Notes under the pieces: model-generated | The model's input: the letters and a program-made list of their open reading frames with translations, nothing else | Database searches by the model: none | Told to the model about the DNA's origin: nothing | Position numbers and translations under genes: made by a program | Source of the DNA: an uncultured Bordetella sp. | GTDB lineage: Bacteria > Pseudomonadota > Gammaproteobacteria > Burkholderiales > SG8-39 | Direction: 5' to 3' | Assembly: GCA_964564865.1 (NCBI GenBank) | Contig: CAZMDA010000004.1 | Span: forward strand, 7,895 to 71,894 | Length of the DNA stretch: 64,000 bases | In this document: one piece after another, positions 19,395-55,029 of the stretch | How positions within the stretch are numbered: the stretch's first letter is position 1 | Layout of the letters: each line of letters starts with the position of its first letter

Positions 19395-19429
19395 GCTATA
19401 ATCCCGGTCCGTTCAATCAGGGTTTCAAT

Positions 19430-19505: not shown

Positions 19506-19515
19506 GATTACGTTA

Positions 19516-19548: not shown

Positions 19549-19554
19549 CAACCC

Positions 19555-19628: not shown

Positions 19629-19646
19629 GCCCCCCACGTCAGGCCT

Positions 19647-19733: not shown

Positions 19734-19750
19734 CAGGGACGAGCGACGAG

Positions 19751-20572: not shown

Positions 20573-20575
20573 CGG

Positions 20576-35640: not shown

Positions 35641-36465
35641 TCAGTCCCGGGAGGCGCTCCAGCGCAGCGCGCGAATCTCCTGCCCCTCCGAATCGCCCGT
35701 CATCCGCCCGCCCTCGATCGTTCCCCGGAAATGCCGTGCCCCGCCATCGGCGTCGAACGACGTGAACTGGATCTCCGTACCCCGAAGCCGCGCGCCGACG
35801 ACGTTCACCGGCTTGCCCGCCCGTTCGCCCCGGATGGTGAGGACCTGGTGAACCTGCTCGATGCGGATGCGCAGCCCGTTGCCGGGAACGTCCACCGACC
35901 AATTGCCCCGGACATCGGCCGGCACAACCCACAGGTATCCGGTGCGACCCTCGGTCCGGATGACCTCGTCCGGCTCCCAGTCGCCGAGCGTGAAATGATG
36001 CGATACCACCCGCGTGCCCGGCCGCAGCGCCAGCAGGCGCGGCTGCAGCTTCGCCATGACACCGGGGCTGATATAGAGCGCGACCACGGTAGCCTGCGCG
36101 AGGTCCGCTTCGAACAGGTCCTGCCGGAGGAACCGCGCGAGGTGCGAAACGCCCTGCGCCTTCGCCGCAGCCTCGGAGATCCGGATCAGGTTCTCCTCCA
36201 GCTCCACGCCGATGGCACGGGCGCCGAAATGCCGGGCGGCATGGATCGGGATGCGGCCGTCCCCGGAACCGAGGTCGATGACGAGGTCCCGGGGCGTCAC
36301 GTCCGCCAGCTGCAGCAGGCGGCGGATCATGCGCTCGGGCGTGGGCACCCAGACCGAGTCCTTGCTGACCTGGCCGATCTGCGGCGCGCCCTGGGCCAGC
36401 GCCGGCGCGGCAGGCGCAAGCAACGCCAGCGCCGCGGCCAGCGCAAGTGTGCGGGCTACTCCCAC
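35641..36465 (-). CDS. class I SAM-dependent methyltransferase with signal peptide
   Basis: VIDLGSGDGRI motif I, GVELEENL motif II-like; N-terminal LALAAALALLAPAAPALA. This is the last core-like gene before the compositional change. Confidence 0.8.
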   Translation of the reverse strand: MGVARTLALAAALALLAPAAPALAQGAPQIGQVSKDSVWVPTPERMIRRLLQLADVTPRDLVIDLGSGDGRIPIHAARHFGARAIGVELEENLIRISEAAAKAQGVSHLARFLRQDLFEADLAQATVVALYISPGVMAKLQPRLLALRPGTRVVSHHFTLGDWEPDEVIRTEGRTGYLWVVPADVRGNWSVDVPGNGLRIRIEQVHQVLTIRGERAGKPVNVVGARLRGTEIQFTSFDADGGARHFRGTIEGGRMTGDSEGQEIRALRWSASRD

Positions 36466-36813: not shown

Positions 36814-37134
36814 TCAGTGCGCATCGACAGTCTGCTCCGCTGTTTCCTTCCATGGCTTGATCTTCGCGAGTGCCCTCGCAAGGTTCGCTTTCGCAACCTC
36901 GGTATCGTAGTCCGCCTGCAAACGAAGCCACCAGCCGTCCGAGAGTCCGAAGAAGCGGCACAGCCGCAGATCGGTGTCCGCGGTAATCGCGCGCTTGCCG
37001 GCGAGGATCTCGCCGATGCGCTGTGCAGGCACGCCGATTTCCTTCGCCAGCCGGTAGTTGCTCATGCCGAGCGGCTTGAGGAATTCCTCGGCCAGCATTT
37101 CGCCGGGCGACACGGGTTTGAGTTTCCTGCTCAT
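36814..37134 (-). CDS. higA: HigA-family antitoxin (XRE HTH)
   Basis: 106 aa from ATG 37134; MSNYRLAKEIGVPAQRIGEILAGKRAIT HTH. Lies downstream of higB (toxin-first order). The 298-aa ORF-track product is an over-extension. Confidence 0.85.
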   Translation of the reverse strand: MSRKLKPVSPGEMLAEEFLKPLGMSNYRLAKEIGVPAQRIGEILAGKRAITADTDLRLCRFFGLSDGWWLRLQADYDTEVAKANLARALAKIKPWKETAEQTVDAH

Positions 37135-37145
37135 GTCGATCTCCG

Positions 37146-37463
37146 TCAGTGATAGTCCACGATCTCGACGTCTTCGGCATCGCTTCCTGTCCAGCGAAAG
37201 CAAATGCGGAACTGATCGTTCACGCGAATGCTCCACTGGCCTGCGCGATCGCCTTTCAGCTGCTCCAGCCGGTTCGCCGGTGGGGCGCGCAGGTCCTCGA
37301 TACGCCGTGCCAGGTCGATCTGCTTCAACTTGCGCAGCGCCGGGCGCTCGATATTGGTGAAGCGCGCTACGCGACGCAGACCGAACAAAGCCTCCGTGTC
37401 GGCACACTTGAACGTCTTGATCGCCACCCGAAGGATAGTAACGCAATGCGTGATTAACGTCAA
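37146..37463 (-). CDS. higB: HigB-family (RelE-fold) toxin
   Basis: IKTFKCADTEALF...RAGQWSIRVNDQFRICFRW...VEIVDYH is the typical plasmid-maintenance killer HigB pattern. The true start may be the internal GTG near 37427. Confidence 0.85.
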   Translation of the reverse strand: MTLITHCVTILRVAIKTFKCADTEALFGLRRVARFTNIERPALRKLKQIDLARRIEDLRAPPANRLEQLKGDRAGQWSIRVNDQFRICFRWTGSDAEDVEIVDYH

Positions 37464-37782: not shown

Positions 37783-40700
37783 TCAGGGCATTTCCATGCG
37801 ACGAAATCGGCGAAGATCGAACACGAGCTCGTTCGCCAACTCAGGGGGAAGCGGCACGCGATTGGCCAAAGCTTCCGAGGTGGCCTCGTCGAACTCAAAT
37901 TTTTGCCCCATGACGATCTGGAACCAGCGTTCCCTGTCCTGGACGACTCGAAACATTTTCTCGTCGGCGCTGCCGCCGAGGTACGGTTCGTAGACGACGA
38001 TCGGCCGTCGTGCAATCTCTGCCTTGCATCGAATTCTGTCGAGACGCCCGGTCCTCTGCTCGAGAGTGCTTGGATTCCAGCACAGGTCGTGGTGGATTAC
38101 GTAGCGGCAGAAGCGGTGTAGATCGACACCTTCGCCAAGAACGGCGCTACTGATAAGAATCTCCGGAAACATTGGGCTGTTGAAGGTAAGCATTAGTCGC
38201 TCGCGCACGTCCCGTTTCGTGTCCCCGAACACCATTCGCACCGGTTGTAACACGCGATAAGATCCCTCGCTCGTAGCAGCACGGACCGCGTCATCGTCGT
38301 CGAGAGCCATCCGACGCGGGGACACGTACACAGCAACAGCCTCAAGGTACTCGGTCAATGGGTCGCGCGCCTCGCCTCCGTCCTCGGCAGGCGGTGTTAC
38401 GCCCCGTTCCGCGAGCTCTTTGGCGAACCGAAGAAATTCTTCTATCCGTGCGCCCATGGTCATCGAGGAGGCATCTGCGCGCTCAGCGAGTGCGCGCGCC
38501 AGTGCTGCGGCACCTGCTCTCGCGACGCGAGCCTGAGTCGATCCGTCCACGAGTGCGTCGCGAACCTCCGCAATGTCAAAGGGGATGTATCTTGCGATGA
38601 AGGAGGGCGAACGGACATATCCGGCGAGCAGTCCTGTGAGTTCCTCCGCTCGCGGGCGCAATACGGCGAATTCGTCGGCCTCCAGGGGTTTGTGCAACAT
38701 TGCAGTCAAGGTGCGATGAAATGGACTGTCTTCGTCCGCAAGGCGCCGAGCCACACGCTCAAACAAATCTCGCAGCCGGCCAGCGTTTCTCTCTGGGTCC
38801 AACCCGAGCTTACGCGCCGCAAGTGCCAAGGTGGCCTTTTCGATTTCACGGCCGATGTGGTCCCGCAGTGATCTCGCAGTTTCGCGATAAAAGCAAAAGA
38901 GCAGCACCTTCTCCCCTGCAGACCATAGGCTGACAGCACGGCGGACGACCGCCTGGATCTTCGGGTGTCCGTAGCGCTCGTTCTCATGCGCGCTCTTGGA
39001 TGGAATGAGCGCACCGACCTGCTCCTCGTACCACGAGATGGGAACTAGGCTCGAATCCCGCTCTGCTTCTTCCGCCTTCGCGGAACGCTCGATGCCTTCG
39101 TCATCGACATCGCGAATGTCCCCGCGGCCATCGCGCGTGTGGTGGAAGGCCTCATAACTCGAGCACAGACCCTCGGCAAAAAACGCCCTTCCCTTGCTCG
39201 ATCCTTGTGCCAGTTCCCCCTGTGCCCGGGCTGCGAGAAGAAAAGGCAGAGACGCACCTCCGCCGATGGAAAGTCCAATGGTTGCGACCGCGACACCCGA
39301 TTCGCCACTCGTTTCTGCGTCGTCGTCGACCACTGCCCGGCCCGGGCAAAGGAGCCGCCTGGAGACCGCCGGGGAACTGGAGGAAGCGGGTAGGAACGCC
39401 GGGCGATTGTGGCGGATGACCCATGTGCGTAGCGAGTTCCAAGGTCTTGCTGCATCCCTCTCAGCGCGTGCTTTGGTGACACGGCACTCATTAATGGCGG
39501 CTAGAAGCTCGCGGTCCAGCGGGTCCTCGCTAGGGACAGCCTGGACAGCCTTCCACCACCTGGCCGCCGCTTGCCCCAAGTCTTCGCCGGAGGAATGTCG
39601 GCTCACCGCTTCGCGCGCCGCTCTCCCCCACAGCCGGTCCAGGCGACGAGCGGCGAGTCGATTCTCGTTGAGTCGCTTTTCCAAGTCATCAATGGACTGC
39701 AGGAAATCCTCACGTGAGCTATCGGGCGCGTTCTTCCCGCTCCACTTCGCCGCCGCGAACGATCGGAGCACCCGGATCAATTCGTGGTGACCTAGCTGAA
39801 ACGGCGTCGCCGTCAGAAACAACATTCGATCGAACTTCTCCCAGAGAAGAGGTTTGCCCGTCTCCAGCCTTCCCTCCATCAGGAGCTGGGTCTCGTCGGA
39901 ACGGAGAAGGCTCGCAAGCCGTGTGTTGTCGTTCTTCGCGTGATGCGCTTCATCCAGCACGAACAGCGGCGCTCGCCACTGCACGCGAGACAGCCAGTCC
40001 CAGTACACCTGCTGGCAGGCCGCGTTGAAATCCCACCGGGCCTCTTGCAAGCGCCTGTCAGAAACCATGCCCCGCCGGCCCGGGATCGCCTCACCTCGCA
40101 GGACAGCGATCAAGGGCGTCCAGTCAATAGCGCGCTGGTGCTGCAACAGGTGCTGAGGAATGGGATCGTCGTCGTCCTCCTCGATAATCTGCTCACGAAT
40201 CAGGATGCTGTGCCATTTGCCCAGGTCTGACTGGAGAAGGTTCTCGACTATTTCCGGTGTGAGGTAGCGTTTGCGTTTCAGTCGAACAAGCGTCGTCGCC
40301 CACTTGTAAAGCCGCTTTTTGGTTTCGTCGTCCATGCGCGTCCGGCTTCGGGCTAGGCGAACGAGCGCGAGCTTGGTCCATGGGTCGGACAAGCCCCTGT
40401 CAAAGCATGCGGTCGTCATCCAGACGATATGTGGTCGGCGATTCCTAGGATCGTCGAGCACCTTGAAGAAATCCGTCGGTGCGTGCACGTAGATGTCGCG
40501 GACCCACCCGAGTGCATCGGGACGCACGCAGATCGCCTTGAACTGGTCCCACTCGCGTGGCCACTTGCTCGCAAGTCCTGGAGGCATCATTACGACGACC
40601 GGTCGCCCTGAGCTGCGGTTGGCCAATACAACCGAGGCAATTACGGCCAAGGCGACGTATGTTTTGCCCATCCCCACTTCGTCTGCCAGCACGACACCGG

Positions 40701-40833
40701 GCCGTGACGCCAAGTCTTTCAAAATGGACTGAGCTGTGCATTGTTGCCGCGCACCGTCCTCGGCGTCGATCTTCTGTGTGCCGATGCCCTGCATGCGGAT
40801 GATGTCGGCGGCAAACGGCCATTCATTCGGCAT
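37783..40833 (-). CDS. SNF2-family DEAD/DEAH-box ATPase/helicase
   Basis: Motifs LADEVGMGKTYVA (I), VLDEAHHAKN (II), LTATPFQLG (III), SSAVLGEGVDLH (V), NPSTLEQRTGRLDRI (VI). Start set to ATG 40833, an 11-nt overlap with the PLD gene stop. ORF-track start 40965 adds 44 Arg-rich residues inside the PLD gene. Confidence 0.85.
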   Translation of the reverse strand: MPNEWPFAADIIRMQGIGTQKIDAEDGARQQCTAQSILKDLASRPGVVLADEVGMGKTYVALAVIASVVLANRSSGRPVVVMMPPGLASKWPREWDQFKAICVRPDALGWVRDIYVHAPTDFFKVLDDPRNRRPHIVWMTTACFDRGLSDPWTKLALVRLARSRTRMDDETKKRLYKWATTLVRLKRKRYLTPEIVENLLQSDLGKWHSILIREQIIEEDDDDPIPQHLLQHQRAIDWTPLIAVLRGEAIPGRRGMVSDRRLQEARWDFNAACQQVYWDWLSRVQWRAPLFVLDEAHHAKNDNTRLASLLRSDETQLLMEGRLETGKPLLWEKFDRMLFLTATPFQLGHHELIRVLRSFAAAKWSGKNAPDSSREDFLQSIDDLEKRLNENRLAARRLDRLWGRAAREAVSRHSSGEDLGQAAARWWKAVQAVPSEDPLDRELLAAINECRVTKARAERDAARPWNSLRTWVIRHNRPAFLPASSSSPAVSRRLLCPGRAVVDDDAETSGESGVAVATIGLSIGGGASLPFLLAARAQGELAQGSSKGRAFFAEGLCSSYEAFHHTRDGRGDIRDVDDEGIERSAKAEEAERDSSLVPISWYEEQVGALIPSKSAHENERYGHPKIQAVVRRAVSLWSAGEKVLLFCFYRETARSLRDHIGREIEKATLALAARKLGLDPERNAGRLRDLFERVARRLADEDSPFHRTLTAMLHKPLEADEFAVLRPRAEELTGLLAGYVRSPSFIARYIPFDIAEVRDALVDGSTQARVARAGAAALARALAERADASSMTMGARIEEFLRFAKELAERGVTPPAEDGGEARDPLTEYLEAVAVYVSPRRMALDDDDAVRAATSEGSYRVLQPVRMVFGDTKRDVRERLMLTFNSPMFPEILISSAVLGEGVDLHRFCRYVIHHDLCWNPSTLEQRTGRLDRIRCKAEIARRPIVVYEPYLGGSADEKMFRVVQDRERWFQIVMGQKFEFDEATSEALANRVPLPPELANELVFDLRRFRRMEMP

Positions 40834-43015
40834 GGCTGCGCTCGCTGTGAGGTGCGCCGAGGAGTTGCGCCTGTTTGCGCCGGACGGCCTGCAGATATTC
40901 CGCAAGATTCGCGGGAGGTGCAGAGCGCGCCGAGATTTCCGCGCACATCTGATCGATGTCCTCAATCACTTCTCGAAACGGAACCTGCATTGGCCCAGCT
41001 GCGATCCTGCGCGCCACATGCGCAAGGGTAAGTTTGATCTCGGCCAGACTGAAGATCGCGATTGCGGCGTCTTGGCTGTTGTCCGCATTCTGTTGGGTCT
41101 TATCGCGCCACTCCCGAATCAGTGCCTCCGCCAGCATTCGGGGGCCAAGCGGATCCTGTTTAAGTCTGTACGCCAACGCATCCCGAGTCCGCACCGTGCG
41201 CAGCACACGATTGCCCAATGCGGTAAGAGCCGTTCCGAGGCGACGCGTGCGATAGAGAACGTAGCTGCTCGTGTCGATGGCTCGCAGGGAATCAAAATCT
41301 CGGGCGCTGGACTGCGCTCCGCCTGAAGCTTCCCGGCGCTCCATCGCCTCGACCCACTCGGCCGGGTCGCGACCCGACAGAAGGCAATCGAGGATTCCGT
41401 CGGCCGTAAGGGAACGAAACTCTTCAGGCGGAAGCAGGTCGTCTCCGCTCTCGATGTGAACCGGCAGGATGGCGCTGTACAGAGTGCCGTCTTCCCCTTG
41501 CCACGTGAGGCGCAGACCTGCGACGTTGGCCCCGCGGAGCGAAATAGGCAGGAATAGGATGATGTTTGCATTGGGTGGTGGCCAAGGCTCGTACGAATGA
41601 TCAGCGAGGGGCGGTGCGGCCTCCGCTCGTTCGCCCGGCCAGCGTAGCGCCCACTGAGCGGGAAACCTAGCCGACAGGTCCACCACAACCTTCAGAACGG
41701 CGGTTCGCTGGTTGTACACGGCCCACAAGAAGGCGGCGGGAAGCGGGCGATCCGAAGCAGGTTGCTCGTCCTCGATCACTTCAGCGGTGTCGGGCCATAT
41801 TGGGTTTGTGCATTGATCTTCTTCCCAGTCGACCGGCAGTCGATTTTCCAGCGACCGGCCGTTTCTCGCGCTCCTGGTGTCGTCGATATAGCAAAGGTTC
41901 GCCTCAAGATTCGCCCTATGGACACCCATGCCGTGCAGACTGAAATTGCTGGATCCGCACAGAAGAAGGGTTGTGCCGTCCCCGCTGACAAGGACACCCT
42001 TGGCGTGAAGATCGCGATTGGTTTTTTCTCCCGGGCGGCACAGAGGGACTACGTAGGTGGAAACGTCAGGCGGATCAACGCGCCAGGCCAATGCCCATGC
42101 TTGGCAAAATCTCTTCGGAAGCGCCACAACCAAGCGATTCGATTCTGCCTCGCTCGGTCGGCCGGGCACAACGAGATATCCGACCGCCTCACGAACCCTA
42201 GGAATGTCCATCAATCTTTCGACGACCGGATCAGCGGTCCCATCGATATCCCCTACGAACGGTGTCATGACCGTGATTTCGGAGGCCCTTCTGGTTCCCC
42301 ACAGTTCGATCAGCCGTCCAAGCGGGGACTGGGCGACGCCGCCGGTGCGCCGTGGCATGCCTCCGACAAAAATGACTCGCGGGCGCTCCCGCGGTGCGAA
42401 GTCCACCGGCATCTGTCTCCAGGAGCGCAGGCGGACTCGTGCGTTGTCGAGTGTTTCGTCCCATCGAGACTTCGCCCCCTCGGAAACACGTATGAAAGGA
42501 CTCAGATCTTTGAGGAAGTCCAGTGCATCAAGCATCACTTTGCGGGGCGCGGAGTTCTCATGATCGAAGAAGTCGATCACCCCAGCAATTTCGCGGTTTC
42601 GGCGATAACCCGATCGCGTTAGGTTGGCGGAAGAAACGATTAGGCGGGCGTAGTTCTCCCAGAACAAAAGAACAACCTTCGAATGCTGCGCCCCTCCCGG
42701 CACTCGAACTGGCAATTGGTCCCATCTGAGGGTCGTTTGCGAAGGGTCCAGGTGGTCCGCATCTACCAGAACACCGACCCGCGCGGTAGCAAGAGCTTGC
42801 TCGCGCTCAACCACAAAGGGGCGAACGCCCTCGGTCTCGTCGAATTTCAACCCCAGAAAGCGCGGCAGCAGTTCCGATTCCAGGAACGATGCGTGAAAGG
42901 TGTACGTCGACGCGATACAAATCAGTGGACGGCCGATATCTCCTCCGGCTGATGCCGCCGGCGCAGTCCAACTCTCGGCGAGCGCCCTCGCGGCGTCGCT
43001 CTTAGATCTCGCCAT
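40823..43015 (-). CDS. PLD-superfamily (two HKD-like motifs) nuclease-like protein with a long uncharacterised C-terminal half
   Basis: 730 aa. QHSKVVLLFWENYARLIVSSANLT (about residues 110-135) and LHAKGVLVSGDGTTLLLCGSSNFS (about residues 336-358). The last ~370 aa have no motif I recognise. 14-nt overlap with the upstream gene. Confidence 0.85.
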   Translation of the reverse strand: MARSKSDAARALAESWTAPAASAGGDIGRPLICIASTYTFHASFLESELLPRFLGLKFDETEGVRPFVVEREQALATARVGVLVDADHLDPSQTTLRWDQLPVRVPGGAQHSKVVLLFWENYARLIVSSANLTRSGYRRNREIAGVIDFFDHENSAPRKVMLDALDFLKDLSPFIRVSEGAKSRWDETLDNARVRLRSWRQMPVDFAPRERPRVIFVGGMPRRTGGVAQSPLGRLIELWGTRRASEITVMTPFVGDIDGTADPVVERLMDIPRVREAVGYLVVPGRPSEAESNRLVVALPKRFCQAWALAWRVDPPDVSTYVVPLCRPGEKTNRDLHAKGVLVSGDGTTLLLCGSSNFSLHGMGVHRANLEANLCYIDDTRSARNGRSLENRLPVDWEEDQCTNPIWPDTAEVIEDEQPASDRPLPAAFLWAVYNQRTAVLKVVVDLSARFPAQWALRWPGERAEAAPPLADHSYEPWPPPNANIILFLPISLRGANVAGLRLTWQGEDGTLYSAILPVHIESGDDLLPPEEFRSLTADGILDCLLSGRDPAEWVEAMERREASGGAQSSARDFDSLRAIDTSSYVLYRTRRLGTALTALGNRVLRTVRTRDALAYRLKQDPLGPRMLAEALIREWRDKTQQNADNSQDAAIAIFSLAEIKLTLAHVARRIAAGPMQVPFREVIEDIDQMCAEISARSAPPANLAEYLQAVRRKQAQLLGAPHSERSHAE

Positions 43016-44435
43016 GTCGATTGCCCACAGATACTTGCTTCAAATCTCCGAGCAGAGAGTAAACATTGGCGATCTTGAACGGATGCAGGTATGCGCCTTG
43101 CCACGCGGGGGGAGACTCTCCGTCAACGCGATGCTCTCCGGGCATAAGAGTCCACGAGGACTCGCATTCGATCCAAGGCGCTTTGCGCTTGTCCTTTTGG
43201 ACGCGCTCATGACGGCGGAGAACCGTATCCGTCAGTGCCTGAAGGGACGCGATCGCGCTTGATGCGTCGTCACGTGCCTGCCGCAGCGGCTCGACCACTT
43301 GCGGCGCGCTCACTGACGGTTGCCTCGCAAGAACTTCAGCCGTGCGATCGAGGATAGGAACGGCTTTTTGAAGCTCAACGCGAGTCTTTTCGAGATGTTT
43401 GCGGAGCCGCGCGTCGCCCATGACGTCGGCCGGACGAGCGCGCCCGCCCCGCAACTTCAGCGCCCAGATCAGGCTATCGAATACCTGCTGAAGCAGACCA
43501 GCTGTCTGCTCATAGGCGTCAGCTGCCGCTATTGCAGCCCCGATCAGGCGATCAATCGGACTGTCGTCAAGCTCAGGCTGTATGCCCCGCAGCATTACGG
43601 ACCGCTCTACCGCGCCACGGTCGCCATATGCGTCCCAAGACGTGCGATATATCTCGGCCCGGAGCTTCAGCAGTTGCACCATACGCTGCCGAGTAGGCGA
43701 CGAGCAAAGAATCTGGAACAGAACGCGGCGCTCCATCGGCCCGATCCGGTCCGGCCGAATGTGCGTCGCGAGTTGTTCCCACACGGAATGACCGGGTCCA
43801 GGCCATTCACGATGTCCCATGTAGGCGGATGTGCGCTTGACGACGTCCGACATCCATCTGGCACCCGGGCGCGAAGCTATACCGTCCTCGTCGAGCACGC
43901 CCGCGAGCCCCTCGTCCGCTGACCACGCGATCAGCAGGGCGACTGCATTTCGACCCATGCGGCCGTCGTCGTCTATCAGTTCCATCTGCCGAGCGAGTCG
44001 CGCGATTACGCCGAACGGTCCGTTAACTGCCTGTCCTTTTAGAAAATTTGCCGCTGTGAGAGGTTCGGCGGCAAGGTGCGCTGCCCTGGCGAGGTCGCGA
44101 CCTGGGAGTCCACGCGGTGCGCTGGCAAATTGGGCATCCCTCTCCGCGGTGCGAACCACGGCTGAAACAAACAGTCGCTCGAATGCCAACCGCGCTTCAA
44201 GATGAAGATCGTCACGATTGTTCATCAGGGTCGTAGTACGCTCCGCAATGGCTGCGGTCACCGCTGCAAGCGTAAGCAAGCGCGCGCGCCACATGCGAAC
44301 GGTCATCCCCGGGAGAAGAATCTCCGCCAAGCGTTCAGCCGGCAGCAGCGTACCCAAGGGATCGAGACTGCCGGGAGGATCCTCTGCAGGATCGAGCGGC
44401 GTGGCTACTGGAAGGCAATCAGCGCTCAGTGGCAT
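43002..44435 (-). CDS. hypothetical protein, 477 aa, no recognisable domain
   Basis: In-frame ATG 44435 preceded by GAGGG at SD distance, 26 nt after the upstream stop. ORF-track start 44756 would overlap the upstream gene by about 295 nt. The composition looks like a real protein rather than a shadow ORF. Confidence 0.6.
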   Translation of the reverse strand: MPLSADCLPVATPLDPAEDPPGSLDPLGTLLPAERLAEILLPGMTVRMWRARLLTLAAVTAAIAERTTTLMNNRDDLHLEARLAFERLFVSAVVRTAERDAQFASAPRGLPGRDLARAAHLAAEPLTAANFLKGQAVNGPFGVIARLARQMELIDDDGRMGRNAVALLIAWSADEGLAGVLDEDGIASRPGARWMSDVVKRTSAYMGHREWPGPGHSVWEQLATHIRPDRIGPMERRVLFQILCSSPTRQRMVQLLKLRAEIYRTSWDAYGDRGAVERSVMLRGIQPELDDSPIDRLIGAAIAAADAYEQTAGLLQQVFDSLIWALKLRGGRARPADVMGDARLRKHLEKTRVELQKAVPILDRTAEVLARQPSVSAPQVVEPLRQARDDASSAIASLQALTDTVLRRHERVQKDKRKAPWIECESSWTLMPGEHRVDGESPPAWQGAYLHPFKIANVYSLLGDLKQVSVGNRHGEI

Positions 44436-44461
44436 CGGACCCTCACTGAATAGCCTGCCAC

Positions 44462-45394
44462 CTAGGAAACAAGAGTCCGGTTGCAGCAAAACTGGTGAAA
44501 CCAGTCGGGCGCACTGGACATGTGACTGAGAAGCCTCGACCAGGCGATCTTCATGAACTTGGAATGGCCATCGACGTCCAGCGCTGCCGCGAACCGATCC
44601 AGGCGCGCCCGCTCTGCGCCAAGAAAAAGCCTTGCTGGACCCAAATTGACCAAGGTCGCGTGTCTGCCGTCGGCCAAGCCCTTCAGGAGACACCAGTTGC
44701 GTGCCAGCTCGTAACACCCCGACGCCTTTACGTCCTCGATGCGCCATGCCAGCCAAGGCGCCTCTTCATATCGCGACCAGCCGGGATAGTCAGGAGCCTT
44801 CAGGTCATTCCCGCTCAGGTGCTTAACCTCGATGAACACCAGCCCGTGCGGTCCGAGATCAACGATTACGTCCGGCTCGGAAAAGGAATTCGGATCCTCG
44901 CGAAGATGGAGGCATAGATCGCTCAAGTGTTTTCGGATCTTGGCGCCACGGGTGCCGCCGTCGATTGGAGTCCCCCACAAGAGAAGCGTTGCTTCGGTCG
45001 CCTCGATCGGCTCGGGAATGATCTGAGCGCGCCGCAGGGATTCGATTAACAGTCCGGAACGCTGCAAGTACGCAAAAACCACCCAGGTCACAGCGTCCTC
45101 GGAAGTGGAAAAGCCGAAGCGCCGCAACTTCGAGGGACGATTACGCACGTTCAGAGCCTGCGCCAAGGCTTCGCTCGCACCTGCCCGGCTCTCGGATGGG
45201 ATATTTCCAAGAGGATCACGATATATGTACGTCACCGCCTCTGGATCCGCCGCATTGGAAGCCCCAACGCCGCATGCATCGCATTTCCGCAGACAGTCAT
45301 CAAACTGCGTGGCCGTTGGGGAAAGGCCGGCGTAATCCACTGATGGGATCGGCCCGCGACAGTTTGGGCAGATTAATGATTGCAACTGAGGCAT
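44462..45394 (-). CDS. zinc-ribbon + PD-(D/E)XK-type nuclease-like protein
   Basis: 310 aa. N-terminal CPNC...CDAC ribbon, and SEPDVIVDLGPHGLVFIEVKH (D-x(n)-E-x-K core) preceded by STSEDAVTWVVF. Confidence 0.65.
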   Translation of the reverse strand: MPQLQSLICPNCRGPIPSVDYAGLSPTATQFDDCLRKCDACGVGASNAADPEAVTYIYRDPLGNIPSESRAGASEALAQALNVRNRPSKLRRFGFSTSEDAVTWVVFAYLQRSGLLIESLRRAQIIPEPIEATEATLLLWGTPIDGGTRGAKIRKHLSDLCLHLREDPNSFSEPDVIVDLGPHGLVFIEVKHLSGNDLKAPDYPGWSRYEEAPWLAWRIEDVKASGCYELARNWCLLKGLADGRHATLVNLGPARLFLGAERARLDRFAAALDVDGHSKFMKIAWSRLLSHMSSAPDWFHQFCCNRTLVS

Positions 45395-45468
45395 CGCATT
45401 TCCACTTGTTTGAGCTTACTGAGGTACATCACTTCAAGGGCAAGCACGATTCGTGAGTCGCCTTTTCA

Positions 45469-48400
45469 CTAGTTATCGATGGCAATTCGCATCGCTCCTG
45501 CTGCCACCGGCAGGACCAGCCAGCTCTCGGCAACGGGACGCCGGGTGGCACGCGTTAGTGCATCGGCGTAGATTGACAGCTGACCACCGTTTTCTGCGGC
45601 AACCTGATCCCATCGGTCTCGCGGGGCCGGGTTCGCCTTGTGATCGAGAAGCACCCATCCCTCCTGTGTTTCCAGAAGCAGATCGATGCGCCCGTGCATG
45701 ACTTGACCGCTGGGGAGTATTGACTCGATGGGAACCTCCGCGTGGCGGCGGCAGTCTCGCCAACGCGACGAGATCCACGCCTCCAACGCATGAACCTGCC
45801 CGATCAGGGCGGACGGTTCGACTGCCCCGTTGAGGCCGAAACCATCGAGAATGCGTTTGACCCGAGGTTCGTCAAGGGTCACGCCCGGATCAGTGAACGC
45901 GGTTGCGATGCACGCATGAATTGCATTGCCGAGGGCGGTCATGTCGATTCCGGCCTTCAGTGCGACCCGACTTCCGATCGACGCTGACTCTGTCACCTTG
46001 AACGGTCGAGCGGCCGAAGCCGAAGCGATGAGGGTCGCGGGCAGTCGCTCGGTGCGTGATCCGGCAGCGGGGAACCAACGAAGCGGCGCATCCGGCTCGA
46101 CCAAGGCAGACGGCTGCGCCGGCGCCTGAAAACTTCGAAAGTCGCAGTTAACCTGAGTCCCATCAGGCAGGGAAACCGAGTCGCCCGCGACGTCCGGTGC
46201 GAGCCATGGCGCATTCAGGGATCCCAGCCATTCGCAGGCGCCCTTCTTCGATGGAAACGCCAGCACGAGGCTGTCCCGCGCCCGTGTCATGCTCACGTAG
46301 AGGAGCCGCTTCGCTTCGTCGATTGCCTCCGCGCGCAGGCGAACCCCCTCGGGCGACTGGGCGATGGTGTCGGCGATGTCAACTTTCTTCTGCGCGCCGA
46401 ACGGCCATGGCCAGTACCGGATCCAGCGATCCTTGAGCGGCGCGGCGACGTCAAAGCCCGCATCGGAACGCGCACCGACCGACCAGAGCCTGTCCTGGAT
46501 GTCCTTCTCCAGGTCGAGCAGGATGACGACGGGCCACTCCAGGCCCTTCGCCGCGTGGTGCGTCATGATCTTGACCGCGTCGACGGGCGGTTCGGCGAGC
46601 ATGTCGAGTCCCGCGCTCGCCTGCTCGCCAAGCCACAGAATGAGTCCCGAAACCGTCGCCGGATCGCGTCGGGCGAGGCACGCGTCCTCGTAGGTTTTTG
46701 CGAGGCCGAGGAGCGCCTGAAGGTTGGCGAGACGTACCCGCGCGACGAGTTCATTGCGCCGCCAACGCAGCACGCGTCCGGCGAGGTCGCATTGGGCGAT
46801 GACGAGTTCCATTGCGGCATGTGGCGAGAGCAGCGGCGCCTGCTCTCGGAGCCTCGCAATTCGAGAGAGCAGCGGGTGCCCGTCCTCAGTGCCGTCGCGC
46901 CACTGGCCGCTGTCGCCGCCCGCTTCAAGGTAGCGCAGGCGATCCGAAAGCCAGGACTCCGGTTCCTCGCAGTCGGCCAGCGAGATGATTTCCGCACTCG
47001 CCAATGTGTCGCGCGGGTCGTTCAATCGTCGCAGGCACGCGAGCGCGAGGACGGCCTCGGGTGTGGCGAGCAGGCCGGACTGCTGCGTGGCCCAGGGCAC
47101 GGAGCCGAGGCGAAGGGCTTCTGCCACGGTCTGCACGCCCGCATTGGTCTTGCAGAGCACCGCGATGTCGCCGAAGTGTGCTGGTCGCGGGGCGCCCGTT
47201 GACGGATCGACGACACGGTAGCCCGAGGCGATCAGCGCCTTGATCCCTTCGGCGAGTGCCGCCGCCCTCTCCGTCACGTTCTTGCCGATGAGAACCCAGT
47301 TGGCGAGGGCCGCGTCCTGGATCTGTTCCTTGCGCACGGCTGCCAGTTCAACATCTTCGCGCGAGAGCCCGGGCGCAAAGGCATCGCCGAAGGCGCCGTT
47401 AACCAAGCGCACCAGGTCCGGCCGAGACCGTCGCGACTTCCCGAGTACTTCCTTGGCGCCGCCCATGCGGGGCAGTTCGCCTAGTACCGCCTTCATGAGT
47501 TCGGCATCGCTGCCCCGGAATCCGTAGATCGCCTGTTTCACGTCGCCAACCCACACGCTCTCGCGCGCGATGCGCGACAGCCGGACGAAAAGTTCGAGCT
47601 GGATGGGGCTCGTGTCCTGGAACTCGTCCACCAGCAGCAAATCGAGCTCCTCGGAGAGCGCCTCGACGACTGTGGATTTCTCCAGCAGCCCGAGAAAGAG
47701 GTGCTCCTGGTCCACAAAGTCGATGACGCCCAGTTCGCGTTTTCTGTGTGCGTAGGCATCCAGTGCCCTCGCCGCTAGTGCGAAGATCGCGGCAAGGTAG
47801 CGCTCGATGTCCTGCCGCAGCCGCGGGTGCGCGGCGAAGCGACCGGCGATGTCCGTCACAGGCTGCGCAACAGCCTTCAAGCCCGCTTCGGGGGCGGCCT
47901 TTGAAAGCTTGACCCAGTCGGCCCAGGATGCGGTGCCGGCCTGTACCACCCGCAGCGTTTCGCGCGCGAGCCCGACATATTCGGCGGTGTTCTTCTTGCC
48001 AGTGGCGCGCTTCTCGATCTCGGCAACGGCGGCCTCGATCGCGGTCGCGAGCGTCGCGTCGAGGTCATCCGTCGCTGGCGGTGGAAAGTGGGCGAGAAGG
48101 TCCCGCGCGTTGCGTTCGCCGAACGTGGCCAGACGCGCAGGAGCGATGTCGTTCGCGCGCGCCTGATCGATGAGCGACTTGAGCGCGCCTTCCCAGCTCT
48201 CGACGCCGAGCCGACGCGCCAGTTCGACCAGTTGCTGGACCGTGGCGCTGTCGGAGACCGTGTCGATCGCCTCCCTCACGAGCGCGCCGGACTGCGCCTC
48301 CTCCAGCACGCGCTGCTCAGGAGCCAGTCCTGCCTCGAAAGCAAAGCGCTCGAGAAATCCCCCACAGACGCTGTTCACCGTCCCGATACGCGCCTGGCCC

Positions 48401-48612
48401 ATCGAATTGGCCAGCGCGAATTCGCCCTTCTCGAGTAGCGCCGTGCGAACCCGCTCGCGAAGCTCGGTCGCGGCCTTGCGTGTGAAGGTCGTCGCGATCA
48501 CCCCGGCCGGTCGAGCCTCCCCAGAGCTGAGCTTCTCGTAGAGGATCTGCGTGAGGCGATAGGTCTTCCCGCTCCCCGCCCCCGCGCTGACGAACCTGAG
48601 CGTGCCGGCCAT
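45469..48612 (-). CDS. UvrD/AddA-like SF1 helicase with C-terminal RecB-family nuclease domain
   Basis: 1047 aa. SAGAGSGKTY (Walker A), LLVDEFQDTSP (motif II), TAAKGLEWPVVIL-type block (HHAAKGLEWPVVILLD), LLYVSMTRARDSL (VI), and C-terminal GRIDLLLE...WVLLDHK...QLSIYA nuclease motifs. Confidence 0.88.
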   Translation of the reverse strand: MAGTLRFVSAGAGSGKTYRLTQILYEKLSSGEARPAGVIATTFTRKAATELRERVRTALLEKGEFALANSMGQARIGTVNSVCGGFLERFAFEAGLAPEQRVLEEAQSGALVREAIDTVSDSATVQQLVELARRLGVESWEGALKSLIDQARANDIAPARLATFGERNARDLLAHFPPPATDDLDATLATAIEAAVAEIEKRATGKKNTAEYVGLARETLRVVQAGTASWADWVKLSKAAPEAGLKAVAQPVTDIAGRFAAHPRLRQDIERYLAAIFALAARALDAYAHRKRELGVIDFVDQEHLFLGLLEKSTVVEALSEELDLLLVDEFQDTSPIQLELFVRLSRIARESVWVGDVKQAIYGFRGSDAELMKAVLGELPRMGGAKEVLGKSRRSRPDLVRLVNGAFGDAFAPGLSREDVELAAVRKEQIQDAALANWVLIGKNVTERAAALAEGIKALIASGYRVVDPSTGAPRPAHFGDIAVLCKTNAGVQTVAEALRLGSVPWATQQSGLLATPEAVLALACLRRLNDPRDTLASAEIISLADCEEPESWLSDRLRYLEAGGDSGQWRDGTEDGHPLLSRIARLREQAPLLSPHAAMELVIAQCDLAGRVLRWRRNELVARVRLANLQALLGLAKTYEDACLARRDPATVSGLILWLGEQASAGLDMLAEPPVDAVKIMTHHAAKGLEWPVVILLDLEKDIQDRLWSVGARSDAGFDVAAPLKDRWIRYWPWPFGAQKKVDIADTIAQSPEGVRLRAEAIDEAKRLLYVSMTRARDSLVLAFPSKKGACEWLGSLNAPWLAPDVAGDSVSLPDGTQVNCDFRSFQAPAQPSALVEPDAPLRWFPAAGSRTERLPATLIASASAARPFKVTESASIGSRVALKAGIDMTALGNAIHACIATAFTDPGVTLDEPRVKRILDGFGLNGAVEPSALIGQVHALEAWISSRWRDCRRHAEVPIESILPSGQVMHGRIDLLLETQEGWVLLDHKANPAPRDRWDQVAAENGGQLSIYADALTRATRRPVAESWLVLPVAAGAMRIAIDN

Positions 48613-48615
48613 CGG

Positions 48616-51246
48616 TCAGCTCTCCCAGCCCGCCAGCCAGCGGTAGTCGTTGTACTCCTCCGGCAAAACTTCCGGTTCGAGCGCTTCGAGCGGCGCCACC
48701 GACTCTTCGGTGGGATCGATGCTTTCGGCTGCAACCTCGATCATCCCCGCGTCGATCTGGGAGCGGCGCCATTTCCAGCCGGCGACGAACCGATCCCACA
48801 GCTGCGCAGTGGACCCACCGCCGCCTGAATGAACCGCACGCGCCTGCGGAAAGAACCCGGTGTCCGGCGCGACGAGACGCGAGGCTTCGAGAATGAAGTA
48901 GGAAACCTGCGGCCACGCCCCGGTTTCCTGCCGCAGCATCTCCGCATACACCGCGAGCTGCAGGTGGCGATTCTTCGCGAGACGGTCCTGGTAGTAGGTG
49001 CCGCCGGACCACTTCATGTCGACGATGCCGAGCTGGCCGGACCAGTTTCGCACGACGAGATCGGCGATGCCCTCGAGGTCACCGCCAGCAAACGTCCCGG
49101 CAAGTACGCGCTCAGGCTCGACGGCGTCAATGCCCGCCGCCGCGAACTGCCGCTGGAACTCCGCGATGGCGCGCTCCAAAGCGGAACGAAGCCGCTCGTA
49201 ATCCCCGCGCCGGCCCGGCATCAGGAGAACCGCGCCCTCCTCCGCCACGACCGCTGCGAACTCGCGCGAGAACCAAGTAGCAAGCGCATTGCCGCGAAGT
49301 CCGAGCGCGCCGTCCGTTCGAAAGAATCGATCGATCAACCGGTGCGCGAGGTTGCCGTAGAGCAGATTCTCGTCGGCTACCGAAAGGAGGTTGGACGGGT
49401 TCAGTCTTGCCGCATACCTCAGGACCCACTGGTAAGGCGCGTTCAAGAACGCGTTGAGGCTAGAGTAGGACTCGCGGTCGCGTGAGGGGATCCTCGCTTC
49501 ACGCGGCAAGCTCCACCAGCGCCGGCGCGCGGGCAGTGGTGCGTGTGCAATCGGCGGCAGGTCGCCTGCTGCACCACTGGCGATGAGGCCCTCCACTGGC
49601 TCCGGCCTTACCCCCTCGACGAACCACTGGATCTCCTGCCACAGCGGGTGACTCTCCTCTCCCGTCGGAGGGAGCACGAGCACGAGTTGCTTGCGCGCAT
49701 TCAGGACCGGCCTGAGCCATTCGTCGGCCCGATTCTTCAGCAAGTCCGCAAGCGGCGGCAGTTCCACCCCGGCCCGTGCGAGTGATGCCACCTCGCTCGC
49801 GCTCCACGGGTAGTGACCAGGCAGCGACGGAGCGCCCATCTGCCACCAGATCACCCGGTCGAAGGGTTCCACGAGCGCCCCCGGGTCGGACACCGAAGGC
49901 ACGCACCCGACCTCGGCGTGCATCGCAAAATTGGGCGCGCCCTGCGCCGTGCACTGCGCAACCAGCGCCTCAAGTTCCGCTGGGTTGACCGAGGATTCCC
50001 CTTGCGCCGCGAGTGTCTCAAGGGCAGCCGTCACGGCGCCAGCCTGCGCGACACCGGTAGCGGCAGCTGCGCTGCGATTCACGTCATCGTCCGCCAGCCT
50101 GGCACCGAAGTAGTCGCGAACCCTGCGGGTTCTGTCGAGCAGCGCGGCGATGGGCGCGCCCTGTTCGGGGCGGTAACGCGGATGCTCGACCCAGAAGGCC
50201 ACCGCCTGGCGCAGATCGGCTGCGCGATCGGGATGATGCCGGATGATCTCCTCGACCGCCTCTTTCCAGCGCTGGCCGCCGATGCCGGGAAACTGCGCAA
50301 TGATTTCGGCCAGCCGCCGTCGTGCATAACCGGGAACCGGCCCGATCGGGTGCGAGAGAAACTGGAGCAGCGCGTAGACATCGAGCGGCTCCCAGACCGT
50401 GGCGAGCGCAAGCGGCAGAACCTGAAGCGCAGGCGCGAGCGGGCTCGCATCCAGAAAACCCTGCCGGGCGGCGTCAGCGGCGTCGAGCGTCGCGTCGAGC
50501 AAGGTGCGGCCCTGCTCGGCGACGATCGCGGCACCTCCCTGTGAAGGGGTGAGCGCGTGCGCAACCCATCGGGCCGCGACCAGCCCCGTCTCGGCGCGCA
50601 CGACGCGCAGGCTGCCATCGCCCGACCAGGGGATCTTTCCGTCCGGGCGATTGCCGTCGTGCGCGGCCTTCAGCGCGATCTGAAGTTTGCCGAGCAGAGA
50701 GTTCGGGTCGGCCGAAGGTCCGTATGCCCTGACCGCGCGCACCGGCAGCTTCGAGAGCACTTCCCGCCAGCGCTTCGGAAACGCTTCGATCGGGTCGACC
50801 AGCTCGACGCTGTCGATCTTGCACTCCTGTTTGTCGAGTGAGCGCGCGACCTCGACCAGGCGCTCGCCGACCGAAGGAAACAGCAGCTCAGCCGTGGCCT
50901 TCTCCACCGCGGCAATGTCGGCGATGCGGGTGCCTGCCCCTGAGGGCGCGCCGCCGTTCCAGCCGTGCAAATGCCACGCGTCCCGCCACGACAGCAGGGA
51001 TGCGGAAGTTCCGATCGGATCGATGCCGAACGACGCGTGATAGAAGCGGTCCAGGGCGTCGCAACGCTTAAGACAGTCGCGGTACTGGGTCACTCGGTGC
51101 GCATGCTCACAGTCGGCGCGCAGCAGGCCGAGTCGCGTCTCGAGCAGGTTCAGAAATCCTTGCGAGCCGAGAACCGGCATTCCCAGCCGGTTGGCGGGTT
51201 GCCAGCCGCGCTCGCCGTCGAGCCGCAATCCAAAAGTTATCTGCAT
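48616..51246 (-). CDS. AddB-like PD-(D/E)XK nuclease subunit (no Walker A seen)
   Basis: C-terminal GIADLVV...LGIVDMKW...HLQLAVYA (D, (D/E)-x-K, QxxxY) RecB-family nuclease motifs. The stop lies 3 nt before the AddA-like ATG, whose GGGAGAG SD is inside this gene. Start ATG 51246 has AGGA upstream; the ORF stays open to TTG 51282. Confidence 0.72.
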   Translation of the reverse strand: MQITFGLRLDGERGWQPANRLGMPVLGSQGFLNLLETRLGLLRADCEHAHRVTQYRDCLKRCDALDRFYHASFGIDPIGTSASLLSWRDAWHLHGWNGGAPSGAGTRIADIAAVEKATAELLFPSVGERLVEVARSLDKQECKIDSVELVDPIEAFPKRWREVLSKLPVRAVRAYGPSADPNSLLGKLQIALKAAHDGNRPDGKIPWSGDGSLRVVRAETGLVAARWVAHALTPSQGGAAIVAEQGRTLLDATLDAADAARQGFLDASPLAPALQVLPLALATVWEPLDVYALLQFLSHPIGPVPGYARRRLAEIIAQFPGIGGQRWKEAVEEIIRHHPDRAADLRQAVAFWVEHPRYRPEQGAPIAALLDRTRRVRDYFGARLADDDVNRSAAAATGVAQAGAVTAALETLAAQGESSVNPAELEALVAQCTAQGAPNFAMHAEVGCVPSVSDPGALVEPFDRVIWWQMGAPSLPGHYPWSASEVASLARAGVELPPLADLLKNRADEWLRPVLNARKQLVLVLPPTGEESHPLWQEIQWFVEGVRPEPVEGLIASGAAGDLPPIAHAPLPARRRWWSLPREARIPSRDRESYSSLNAFLNAPYQWVLRYAARLNPSNLLSVADENLLYGNLAHRLIDRFFRTDGALGLRGNALATWFSREFAAVVAEEGAVLLMPGRRGDYERLRSALERAIAEFQRQFAAAGIDAVEPERVLAGTFAGGDLEGIADLVVRNWSGQLGIVDMKWSGGTYYQDRLAKNRHLQLAVYAEMLRQETGAWPQVSYFILEASRLVAPDTGFFPQARAVHSGGGGSTAQLWDRFVAGWKWRRSQIDAGMIEVAAESIDPTEESVAPLEALEPEVLPEEYNDYRWLAGWES

Positions 51247-51313
51247 CCGATGGATCCTGGCTGCAGGACGCGCCATACCCAATGAATCGGACCGATGGCG
51301 CGCGGACCAAGCA

Positions 51314-51883: not shown

Positions 51884-51890
51884 CCGCTAG

Positions 51891-53072
51891 GGAATCTCTG
51901 AATTAACCCGCCGTTTACTTGTCATAGGGACATCAGGTCCGAACAACAAGAACGGGGGATGACCGTGAAGAACAAGCAGATGACGCTTGCTGGTTCCGGA
52001 TTCGAGAAGTTCTCCAAGACGACCCGGCGGGCACAGTTCCTCGCCGAGATGGACCGGGTGGTGCCTTGGCGTGAGCTGTGTGCGCTGGTTGAGCCGGTGT
52101 ATCCGAAGGGCACGACCGGCGCGGGGCGCCCGCCGGTGCCGCTGGAGCGGATGCTGCGGATCCACTGCCTTCAGCACTGGTTCAACCTGAGCGATCCGGC
52201 GGTCGAGGAAGCGCTGTACGACTCGGCGGCGATGCGGGCGTTTGCCGGGATCGACCTGGGCTCGGAGCCTGCGCCGGATGAGACGACGGTGTGCAAGTTC
52301 CGCCACTTGCTCGAGCGCAACCAACTGGGAACCCGGATCTTCCAGGAGATGGGGCGCTATCTCCAGAGCCAGGGGCTTCGCATCAGCTCGGGCACGATCG
52401 TCGATGCGACGATCATCAGCGCTCCCAGCTCCACCAAGAACTCCGAGGGCAAGCGTGACCCGGAGATGCACCAGACCCGCAAGGGCAAGGACTGGCACTT
52501 CGGCATGAAGGCGCATGTCGGGGTGGACCGCAAGACCAAGCTCATTCACTCCGTGGCTGCCACCCCAGCGAACGTCTCCGACGGCAGCATGATCGAGTCG
52601 CTGCTGCATGGCGGCGAGACGCATGTCTGGGGTGACGCGGCGTATGTCGGCCAAGGCGAGCGTATCCGGGCCAAGGCGCCCCAAGCCAAGGACTTCACCC
52701 AGCGCCGGGGCCGCGGCTACAAATACCTGAGCGCCTACGATCGATGGATCAACCGAGCCCGATCCAGAGTGCGGGCCCGAGTCGAGCACTCGATCGGGGT
52801 GATCAAACGGGTCTTCGGCTTCGCCAAGGTGCGCTACCGCGGCATCGCGAAGAACGCCAACCGGTTGTTCGTGACCTGCGCGCTGGCGAATCTGTTCATC
52901 GCCCGCCATCACTTGATCCGAACCCGAGGGGCGTAGTGCGTCCGAAAATCGGAACGGGGCTTCTTCGGAGCCCCAAACGAGCAGAAAACGGGCTCTCTCG
53001 GACCGTATCTGCCTCATTCCCACTTCGTAAAGCGCTGTCGGTCGCATTCGCGGTGCTTACTTCAGACGTTCC
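51891..53072 (+). mobile_element. IS5-family (IS5 group) insertion sequence, 1182 bp, flanked by a 4-bp CTAG target duplication
   Basis: Terminal inverted repeats GGAATCTCTGAATTAACC / GGAACGTCTGAAGTAAGC (14 of the first 18 positions match). CTAG at 51887-51890 and 53073-53076. A single DDE transposase ORF lies inside. Confidence 0.85.
51959..52936 (+). CDS. IS5-family DDE transposase
   Basis: 325 aa, collinear with E. coli IS5 transposase as remembered: LERMLRIHCLQHWFNLSDPAVEEALYD, DATIISAPSSTKN, KDWHFGMKAHVGVD, RARVEHSIGVIKRVFGF. Confidence 0.93.
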   Translation: MTVKNKQMTLAGSGFEKFSKTTRRAQFLAEMDRVVPWRELCALVEPVYPKGTTGAGRPPVPLERMLRIHCLQHWFNLSDPAVEEALYDSAAMRAFAGIDLGSEPAPDETTVCKFRHLLERNQLGTRIFQEMGRYLQSQGLRISSGTIVDATIISAPSSTKNSEGKRDPEMHQTRKGKDWHFGMKAHVGVDRKTKLIHSVAATPANVSDGSMIESLLHGGETHVWGDAAYVGQGERIRAKAPQAKDFTQRRGRGYKYLSAYDRWINRARSRVRARVEHSIGVIKRVFGFAKVRYRGIAKNANRLFVTCALANLFIARHHLIRTRGA

Positions 53073-55027: not shown

Positions 55028-55029
55028 GC

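Follow-up and report, generated by a model that had tools for sequence, protein, structure and literature searches.

A 64,000-nucleotide (nt) stretch of DNA from an uncultured Bordetella sp. (NCBI GenBank assembly GCA_964564865.1, contig CAZMDA010000004.1, positions 7,895 to 71,894; the whole stretch is referred to here as the window) contains four co-directional genes at positions 37783-45394, numbered g1 to g4 from the upstream end. The original prediction, made from the sequence alone, read them as one four-gene defence system that combines two nucleases, a SNF2-family ATPase and an orphan protein and fits no named family. The observation itself is confirmed, and an anti-phage or anti-mobile genetic element (anti-MGE) nuclease-translocase system is, by analogy with characterised systems, still the most plausible reading; the four-gene unit and the absence of a named relative are not upheld. 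The genes and the spacer between the first two are listed below, with protein lengths in amino acids (aa).

44462-45394, minus strand: g1, 310 aa, Cys cluster (probable Zn ribbon) and PD-(D/E)XK motif
44436-44461, minus strand: g1/g2 spacer, 26 nt, with a GAGGG Shine-Dalgarno sequence at 44444-44440
43002-44435, minus strand: g2, 477 aa, mostly alpha-helical 'A' subunit, first gene of the cassette
40823-43015, minus strand: g3, 730 aa, two HKD (PLD-type) motifs, predicted effector
37783-40833, minus strand: g4, 1016 aa, SNF2-family ATPase/translocase

The open reading frames (ORFs), their strand and the lengths of their junctions are all as originally described. Read directly from the sequence, the GAGGG lies four bases ahead of the g2 ATG, g2 and g3 overlap by 14 nt, and g3 and g4 overlap by 11 nt. 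Mechanical ORF calling permits longer starts for g2 and g4, which are unsupported because the alignments with homologues start at the residues chosen in the original prediction. g1 to g4 are real genes, not chance ORFs. There are hundreds of homologues for each of the four, among which the motifs first quoted for g1, g3 and g4 are conserved, and the ratio of nonsynonymous to synonymous substitution rates (dN/dS) is 0.06-0.12 for all four and 0.06-0.09 for g2-g4, measured between the window and its closest relative, L061, at protein identities of 70-84% and with dS near saturation. L-numbers (L001, L018, L061, L064 and so on) are labels of comparison loci.

The three-gene cassette and its distribution

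The protein encoded by g2, referred to as the helper or 'A' protein, has no match at E <= 0.1 in Pfam or PADLOC and none in NCBIfam. A homologue search returns more than 250 relatives, and an exhaustive profile search extends the superfamily to 808 representative clusters. The AlphaFold (AF2) model (predicted local distance difference test score, pLDDT, 87) is mainly alpha-helical and has no significant fold match in the PDB with Foldseek; sequence and profile searches of the PDB with g1, g2 and g3 also found nothing. A second tier of the superfamily consists of 425-460-aa proteins, gathered as alignment A3, which likewise lack a Pfam match and align with the g2 family over its full length in HHalign (100% probability, E 2e-69). 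The protein of a further clade, 462 aa long, also aligns with the g2/A3 superfamily over its full length (97-98% probability, E about 2e-12). The invariant blocks of the helper are an N-terminal DPLG...PG.T.RMWR, NFLKGQAVNGPFGV and a C-terminal RHERVQ..KRK.W.

g3 belongs to the PLD/HKD superfamily, as it contains two H-x-K...(S/T)-x-N motifs and scores above the gathering threshold of Pfam PLDc_2, if marginally (29.6 bits, cut-off 27). Both motifs, H111-x-K113...N131 and H337-x-K339...N357, are invariant in 11/11 homologues. The C-terminal half of the protein, about 350 aa, is uncharacterised. In PADLOC, g3 matches ZacB best (E 1.3e-10, partial) and, after it, DrmC weakly.

g4 belongs to the SNF2 family, with SNF2-rel_dom at 28.6 bits (cut-off 24.9), Helicase_C at 48.2 bits (cut-off 23.5) and motifs I, II, III, V and VI that are invariant or nearly so among homologues. 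A long insertion separates its two helicase lobes. Searches of the PDB return generic SNF2 C-lobes only, and the PADLOC matches, all of them partial, are to PDC-M27C (3.4e-31), DrmD (1.5e-23) and ZacC (2.1e-23).

The distribution of these genes was surveyed by a pattern-limited scan, seeded with the g2 alignment, of one genome per GTDB species (about 185,000 species genomes), which returned 17 loci in Proteobacteria, Planctomycetota (including Phycisphaerae), Thermodesulfobacteriota, Armatimonadota, Nitrospirota and Acidobacteriota. The trio spans about seven phyla. Its order g2-g3-g4 is kept at 38-84% identity in all nine complete loci from other lineages (Alphaproteobacteria, Planctomycetota, Phycisphaerae, Thermodesulfobacteriota, Armatimonadota and Nitrospirota), and in cassette loci g3 always follows g2 and g4 always follows g3. 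g1 is present in none of the 11 other-lineage cassette loci that include upstream sequence, and is absent even from L001, where g2 is 79% identical to that of the window. An all-versus-all BLAST of the flanking ORFs across the nine genomes found nothing in common and no conserved partner, such as a methyltransferase.

Because the order of g2, g3 and g4 is constant, g1 is missing and the flanks differ, the evolutionary unit is three genes, and g2-g3-g4 is an autonomous cassette rather than part of a four-gene block. The co-occurrence survey seeded on g2, which the original prediction had proposed, is thus positive for the linkage of g2, g3 and g4 and negative for g1. The four-gene functional unit first put forward does not stand, given that the complete loci from other lineages hold g2-g3-g4 alone and that g1 mostly occurs without the cassette.

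Sampled members of the two other branches of the g2 superfamily (A3 and the 462-aa clade) also precede PLD and SNF2 genes. Two A3 members checked by contig both lie in A-PLD-SNF2 cassettes with 4-nt overlaps (A 450-460 aa, PLD 684-688 aa, SNF2 944-972 aa), and the PADLOC pattern of these cassettes is that of g3 and g4, the nuclease matching ZacB best and the motor matching PDC-M27C, ZacC and DrmD.

The cassette clade is found mainly in environmental metagenome-assembled genomes (MAGs), and annotated plasmids and phages contained no tblastn match to g1 or g2. In L075 the cassette neighbours genes for an integrase and a MobA/TraI relaxase, in L076 genes for MAD7, FtsK, Peptidase_U49 and DUF3800. 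In an Acidobacteriota MAG (L015, 10001-11198), residues 1-76 of g2 are fused straight to residues 693-1016 of g4; this copy is an internally deleted, dead cassette.

The same parts could be assembled into a function outside defence, in which a Tdp1-like phosphodiesterase, a RapA-like motor and a helper act in DNA repair or in the maintenance or transfer of a conjugative element. g3 does show a weak match to Pfam Tyr-DNA_phospho, the C-lobe of g4 resembles those of RapA and Rad26, and in the window the cassette lies beside an AddAB-like pair, in an element with a type IV secretion system (T4SS) coupling protein. Such a function is very unlikely in view of the patchy spread of the cassette (17 loci in the whole pattern-limited scan), flanks that are never conserved, neighbours that are defence or MGE genes, and the fact that the nearest characterised architecture is a validated anti-phage system (bioRxiv 10.1101/2025.07.10.664194).

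Relation to Azaca, PDC-M27 and other systems

That architecture is Azaca, for which Millman et al. 2022 is given as the original source and which consists of ZacA (DUF6361), ZacB (a PLD nuclease) and ZacC (a superfamily 2, SF2, helicase) (bioRxiv 10.1101/2025.07.10.664194). BmAzaca provides > 10^6-fold protection against T4; its DNA cleavage requires ZacA, ZacB and ZacC jointly, as well as the active site of ZacB and the Walker A motif of ZacC, and the system prefers to cleave hypermodified T4 DNA, which carries glucosyl-hydroxymethylcytosine (bioRxiv 10.1101/2025.07.10.664194). Like the cassette, Azaca has three genes in the same order with overlapping junctions and no methyltransferase, and the sizes are held in common (helper 430-480 aa, PLD/HKD nuclease 600-730 aa, SF2/SNF2-like ATPase about 1000 aa). 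The locus in the window shows the architecture of Azaca in its helper-PLD-SF2 ATPase order, its intact HKD and Walker A/B motifs and its methyltransferase-free island. It differs in the length of g3, which exceeds its counterpart by about 130 aa and fails to align in its C-terminal half, and in that none of g2, g3 and g4 scores at member level.

PDC-M27 is one of 145 PADLOC candidates from a guilt-by-embedding screen and is known by prediction (bioRxiv 10.1101/2024.01.29.577857); a literature search for PDC-M27 found no paper. Judged from its profile lengths it shares the three-gene layout (A 460 aa; B, PLD, 635 aa; C, SNF2, 892-1217 aa), and PDC-M27C is the top, if partial, match of g4. It differs in that g2 has no PDC-M27A match and g3 matches PDC-M27B only in part (E 4.8e-4). 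PDC-M27 may be as close a relative as Azaca, or closer.

The relation between g2 and ZacA emerges at the level of families. In HHalign, a merged g2 and A3 profile matches a ZacA/DUF6361 alignment (25 proteins, every one with PF19888) at 63% probability and E 6.8e-5 over 349 co-linear columns, near full length and computed without secondary structure, whilst reversed-profile controls reach E 0.4-0.5 over 8-10 columns. The g2 family alone matches ZacA at 31% probability in the C-terminal half, and A3 alone at 52% in the N-terminal half, where its D-P-L-G...P-G is aligned with the V-D-x-L-G...F-P-A-T of ZacA. Family profiles are required for this, as single-sequence ZacA comparisons with the g2 and A3 profiles are uninformative (0.5-3% probability). 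BLASTP of g2 with one ZacA gives E 1e-3 at the common N-terminal D-x-LG motif. Among A3 members, 12/61 weakly match PDC-M27A (best E 4.6e-6) and 4/61 match ZacA. PLD proteins of the g3 type always have ZacB as their best PADLOC match, and the SNF2 proteins match PDC-M27C, ZacC and DrmD. On this moderate evidence, g2 appears to be a remote homologue of ZacA.

An independent invention that merely resembles Azaca would have a g2 unrelated to ZacA, a likeness of the PLD and SNF2 proteins confined to their domains, and possibly another trigger or mechanism. The missing match of g2 to DUF6361 or ZacA at the level of hidden Markov models, the low single-sequence HHalign probabilities, the restriction of the g3-ZacB similarity to the HKD region and a g4 that matches PDC-M27C best and DrmD about as well as ZacC are all in keeping with such an origin. 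It is nevertheless rather unlikely, since the family-versus-family alignment is co-linear and near full length (E 7e-5) where reversed controls fail, the N-terminal D-x-LG...P-G/A-T...R motif is common to both families at the same position, the genes come in the same order with the same protein sizes and overlapping junctions, and A3 members bridge to both the ZacA and the PDC-M27A models.

The cassette is therefore best described as a divergent Azaca/PDC-M27-type system, Azaca-like in architecture and outside Azaca by current model definitions. That it fits no named family was too strong a claim, as order, sizes, domains and remote homology match those of Azaca and PDC-M27, neither of which had been considered. 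g2-g4 are probably a self-contained, horizontally mobile anti-phage or anti-MGE system of the Azaca (ZacABC)/PDC-M27 type, of which g1 is not a core part.

Several observations weigh against so close an association with Azaca. g2 has no match to DUF6361 (PF19888) or to ZacA, whereas a true ZacA scores 193-216 bits over its full length. g3 scores 38.8 bits against ZacB, with residues 103-380 aligned to positions 101-338 of a 586-position profile, against 250 bits over positions 3-582 for a true ZacB, and g4 scores 80.9 bits against ZacC in two short stretches, against 644 bits over positions 12-1012 for a true ZacC; by these scores g3 falls outside ZacB and g4 outside ZacC. In a bona fide Azaca locus (L077) the three models are matched at 216, 250 and 644 bits, all over their full length. 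The g3 family compared with a single ZacB in HHalign reaches 9% probability, near one HKD motif, and the ZacA link is a moderate one, at the probability and with the profiles given above. The defence role and mechanism of this clade are suggested by analogy and context, PDC-M27 being itself a candidate, and relatives as distant as these may not share the preference that BmAzaca shows for modified DNA.

By analogy with the Bacillus Azaca system, g3 and g4 would be the counterparts of ZacB and ZacC, g2 would be a helical A subunit needed as a scaffold or sensor, and the three would assemble into a single complex. The SNF2 motor of g4, on binding or hydrolysing ATP, may license the HKD nuclease of g3, which would cut invading DNA via a phosphohistidine intermediate. 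The complex might sense a feature of foreign DNA, such as base hypermodification, so that self DNA would be spared without self methylation; no methyltransferase would be needed, as discrimination is proposed to rest on a property of the invader. No DNA methyltransferase is found in the island (36.7-64 kb), which the original prediction had treated as a puzzle. For a system of this type it is not one, as Azaca has none and BmAzaca prefers hypermodified T4 DNA (bioRxiv 10.1101/2025.07.10.664194).

The pairing of PLD and SNF2 families also recalls DISARM (DrmC and DrmD) and Dpd, which combines a SNF2-like DpdE with a PLD-like DpdK, and g3 and g4 give weak matches to all four models. That the genes form the restriction half of DISARM or Dpd, with the remaining parts elsewhere in the genome, is highly improbable. 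The NCBIfam scores lie far under their cut-offs (DrmD 100 bits against 610, DrmC 35.5 against 133, DpdE 66.8 against 500, DpdK 13.6 against 100); DrmA, DrmB (DUF1998) and the methylase are not in the island, in which no suitably sized ORF is left unassigned, and no homologues of DpdA/B/C were seen in the window. The cassette travels alone in other genomes, with unrelated flanks and in many phyla, and canonical ZacC shows the same secondary matches and the same weak hits to DrmD and DpdE. The misfit to these two systems that had been noted from the start is thus upheld.

Single-chain PLD-helicase anti-phage proteins (NCBIfam NF042964; PADLOC PLD_Helicase) likewise combine a PLD nuclease with an SF2 motor, and g4 matches the helicase part of the two models at 6e-19 and 3e-10 respectively; they differ in that nuclease and motor are separate polypeptides here and are predicted to need a third protein, of the A type. 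The design of a PLD nuclease with an SF2 motor is also that of SauUSI-type type IV enzymes.

PADLOC v2 does not call these cassette loci, and the cassette is not described in a 2026 paper on BREX diversity (PMC12839542). Its novelty is that of an unannotated branch of the known Azaca/PDC-M27 type and not of a new class of immunity. The comparison suggests that the validated Azaca, the candidate PDC-M27 and a large unannotated clade, mostly environmental and spread over many phyla, belong to one tripartite superfamily of helper, HKD nuclease and SNF2 motor, whose parts current tools keep apart or overlook. Defence-system annotation thus has a large blind spot at present, and a profile made from the present alignments would recover many more cassettes. 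The invariant residues of the helper are new targets for probing the role of the essential, unexplained A subunit of Azaca.

Gene 1 and its varied company

g1 has no family match in Pfam, NCBIfam or PADLOC. Its Cys cluster consists of C10-x2-C13 and C34/C38/C41, and the invariant residues are E99-D100, P174-D175 and E189-x-K191. In the AF2 model (pLDDT 94), D175 lies at the start of strand 176-179, just before it, and E189-x-K191 at the end of strand 185-190. Foldseek searches of the model against the PDB and BFVD gave nothing significant (EcoO109I E 0.77, NucS E 0.81, viral PD-(D/E)XK proteins 0.2-0.9). These positions are the ones expected of the residues in a PD-(D/E)XK core, and motif and predicted topology together point to a putative PD-(D/E)XK nuclease.

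A metagenome scan seeded with g1 returned 40 loci, most of them without any other gene of the window, and in an unbiased g1-seeded sample the cassette is present in about 1-2 of about 20 informative loci. The genes that precede g1 are diverse: an AddB-like/AddA-like pair in L018, HsdM and HsdR in L020, DUF499 ATPases in L052 and L053, and an SNase-domain gene in L022, with a RecD2-like helicase about 0.9 kb upstream in L058. In L021, L022, L064 and L065, g1 overlaps a 462-aa A gene by 4 nt, and a 624-aa PLD gene and a SNF2 gene come next. We read g1 as a promiscuous defence-island gene that is recurrently but not obligately found beside Azaca-type cassettes, probably either an optional accessory or a nuclease in its own right. 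In the window it lies between the cassette and an AddAB-like block that looks separately acquired, and it may serve there as a second, optional nuclease.

In this lineage, g1-g2-g3-g4 could still be a genuine four-component, two-nuclease system. The 26-nt g1/g2 spacer with its Shine-Dalgarno sequence speaks for this, as do the 4-nt overlap of g1 with the A gene of a diverged clade and the GC content at third codon positions (GC3), which is 0.67 for g1, 0.63-0.69 for g2-g4 and the Wadjet operon, and 0.78 for the AddAB-like pair. The window and L064 both carry g1 and a cassette downstream of an 87-96% identical Wadjet operon, and SNF2-nuclease fusions are known from ZorD (PADLOC description) and BREX-related helicases (PMC12839542). 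A four-component system is unlikely all the same, given that g1 is absent from every one of the 11 other-lineage loci with upstream sequence, that so few informative g1-seeded loci hold the cassette, that g1 also follows HsdR, DUF499 and AddA-like genes, and that g1 is more diverged than g2-g4 between the window and L061 (70% against 78-84% identity). Tight g1/g2 coupling is not conserved, because the spacer is 136 nt in L061. An optional four-gene variant is plausible, because in a second, diverged clade g1 overlaps the gene that opens the cassette.

The coupling of g1 to two cassette clades also counts against the preferred reading of g1 as an accessory, in that to call g1 'not a subunit' may give too little weight to its part in this lineage. 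It is doubtful, but worth setting out, that g1 and the cassette make up a distinct two-nuclease subtype in which g1, as a structurally novel Zn-ribbon PD-(D/E)XK protein, is a true fourth subunit that alters target range or cleavage chemistry. The wider family of g1 would then supply a portable accessory nuclease to defence systems built on a translocase or ATPase (SNF2 cassettes, type I HsdR, DUF499 ATPases, UvrD/AddA-like helicases). The fusions of SNF2 with PD-(D/E)XK/Mrr-type nucleases in Zorya ZorD and BREX-related helicases (PMC12839542) are a precedent for pairing g1 with the cassette; they differ in that g1 is separate and promiscuous, with no significant similarity to Mrr or to solved nucleases. 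With the g1 family, the island contains another unannotated protein besides the helper; it has a confident model, no structural neighbour and a recurrent position beside defence motors, and is a candidate portable accessory nuclease.

An assignment of g1 to the AddAB-like pair was suspected first, from the order AddB-AddA-g1 in L018 and L061, and was rejected as a general rule because most g1 loci lack the pair and the codon composition of g1 is unlike that of the pair. L018 also holds a canonical Azaca at 1-2391 (minus strand; ZacA E 3e-57, then a gene of at least 620 aa), which is divergent from the AddAB-like pair and g1, with one IS3-like element between them; g1 is here again near an Azaca-type system.

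Several g1 homologues, in L049, L050, L051 and L052, are split over two frames, which could reflect gene decay or assembly error. A trypsin-like peptidase gene lies directly upstream of g1 in L031 (259-1182), and in L068 (3326-4006) one is found two genes ahead of an A3-type cassette; chance or a further optional accessory could account for this.

The surrounding island

The defence-island and mobile-element setting that had been described for these genes holds: the Wadjet operon, the AddAB-like pair and the T4SS coupling protein are present and a toxin-antitoxin (TA) pair is likely. The other features of the window are as follows.

35641-36465: DOT1/Methyltransf_25-type methyltransferase-like gene, in the high-GC chromosomal part, outside the island
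45469-51282, minus strand: AddAB-like pair, AddB-like 888 aa (PDDEXK_1) and AddA-like 1047 aa (UvrD and PDDEXK_1)
51959-52936, plus strand: IS5-family DDE transposase (DUF772 and DDE_Tnp_1), between Wadjet and the AddAB-like pair
53840-61497, minus strand: type I Wadjet operon and BrxR/WYL regulator
62339-63991: T4SS coupling protein

JetA, JetC and JetD are strong matches to their PADLOC models, with the WYL regulator adjoining, and a 226-aa ORF between JetA and JetC is the likely JetB, in agreement with the syntenic operon of L064 (98-7744). WYL, JetA, JetC and JetD are 87-96% identical between the window and L064. The site downstream of JetD looks like a variable cargo hotspot, because everything after JetD differs between the two. 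The cargo is in both cases g1 with an A-PLD-SNF2 cassette; the g1 of L064 is 67% identical to that of the window, and its cassette is from another clade.

The AddAB-like pair, upstream of g1, matches only GajB-like and DruK-like models in PADLOC and is again accompanied by g1 in L018 and L061. It has the look of a module acquired on its own and is possibly itself a defence system. The spacer between its AddA-like gene and g1 (45395-45468, 74 nt, 47% GC) has the lowest GC content among the four intergenic spacers measured and might hold an internal promoter; the sigma-70 consensus scan gave none there. Across 36.5-52 kb, the scan for sigma-70 promoters and terminators returned counts at or below the shuffled expectation.

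A 386-aa minus-strand ORF at 51887-53047 is spurious, with a GC3 of 0.61 against 0.86 for the plus-strand transposase. Just downstream of g4, at 36814-37463 (minus strand), two small genes read like a HigB toxin and a HigA antitoxin with an XRE-type helix-turn-helix. The gene at 35641-36465 is the sole methyltransferase-like one in the vicinity, and the N-terminus of its product reads like a signal peptide.

An Rfam scan of the window returned three tRNAs only, a tRNA-Gly/Cys/Leu cluster at 19430-19733 (plus strand), which is not an obvious integration site for the island because about 17 kb separate it from the break in composition near 36 kb. In L061, about 2 kb downstream of the cassette, a gene at 18921-21434 (plus strand) encodes a fusion of Pkinase, SNF2-rel_dom and Helicase_C of more than 895 aa.

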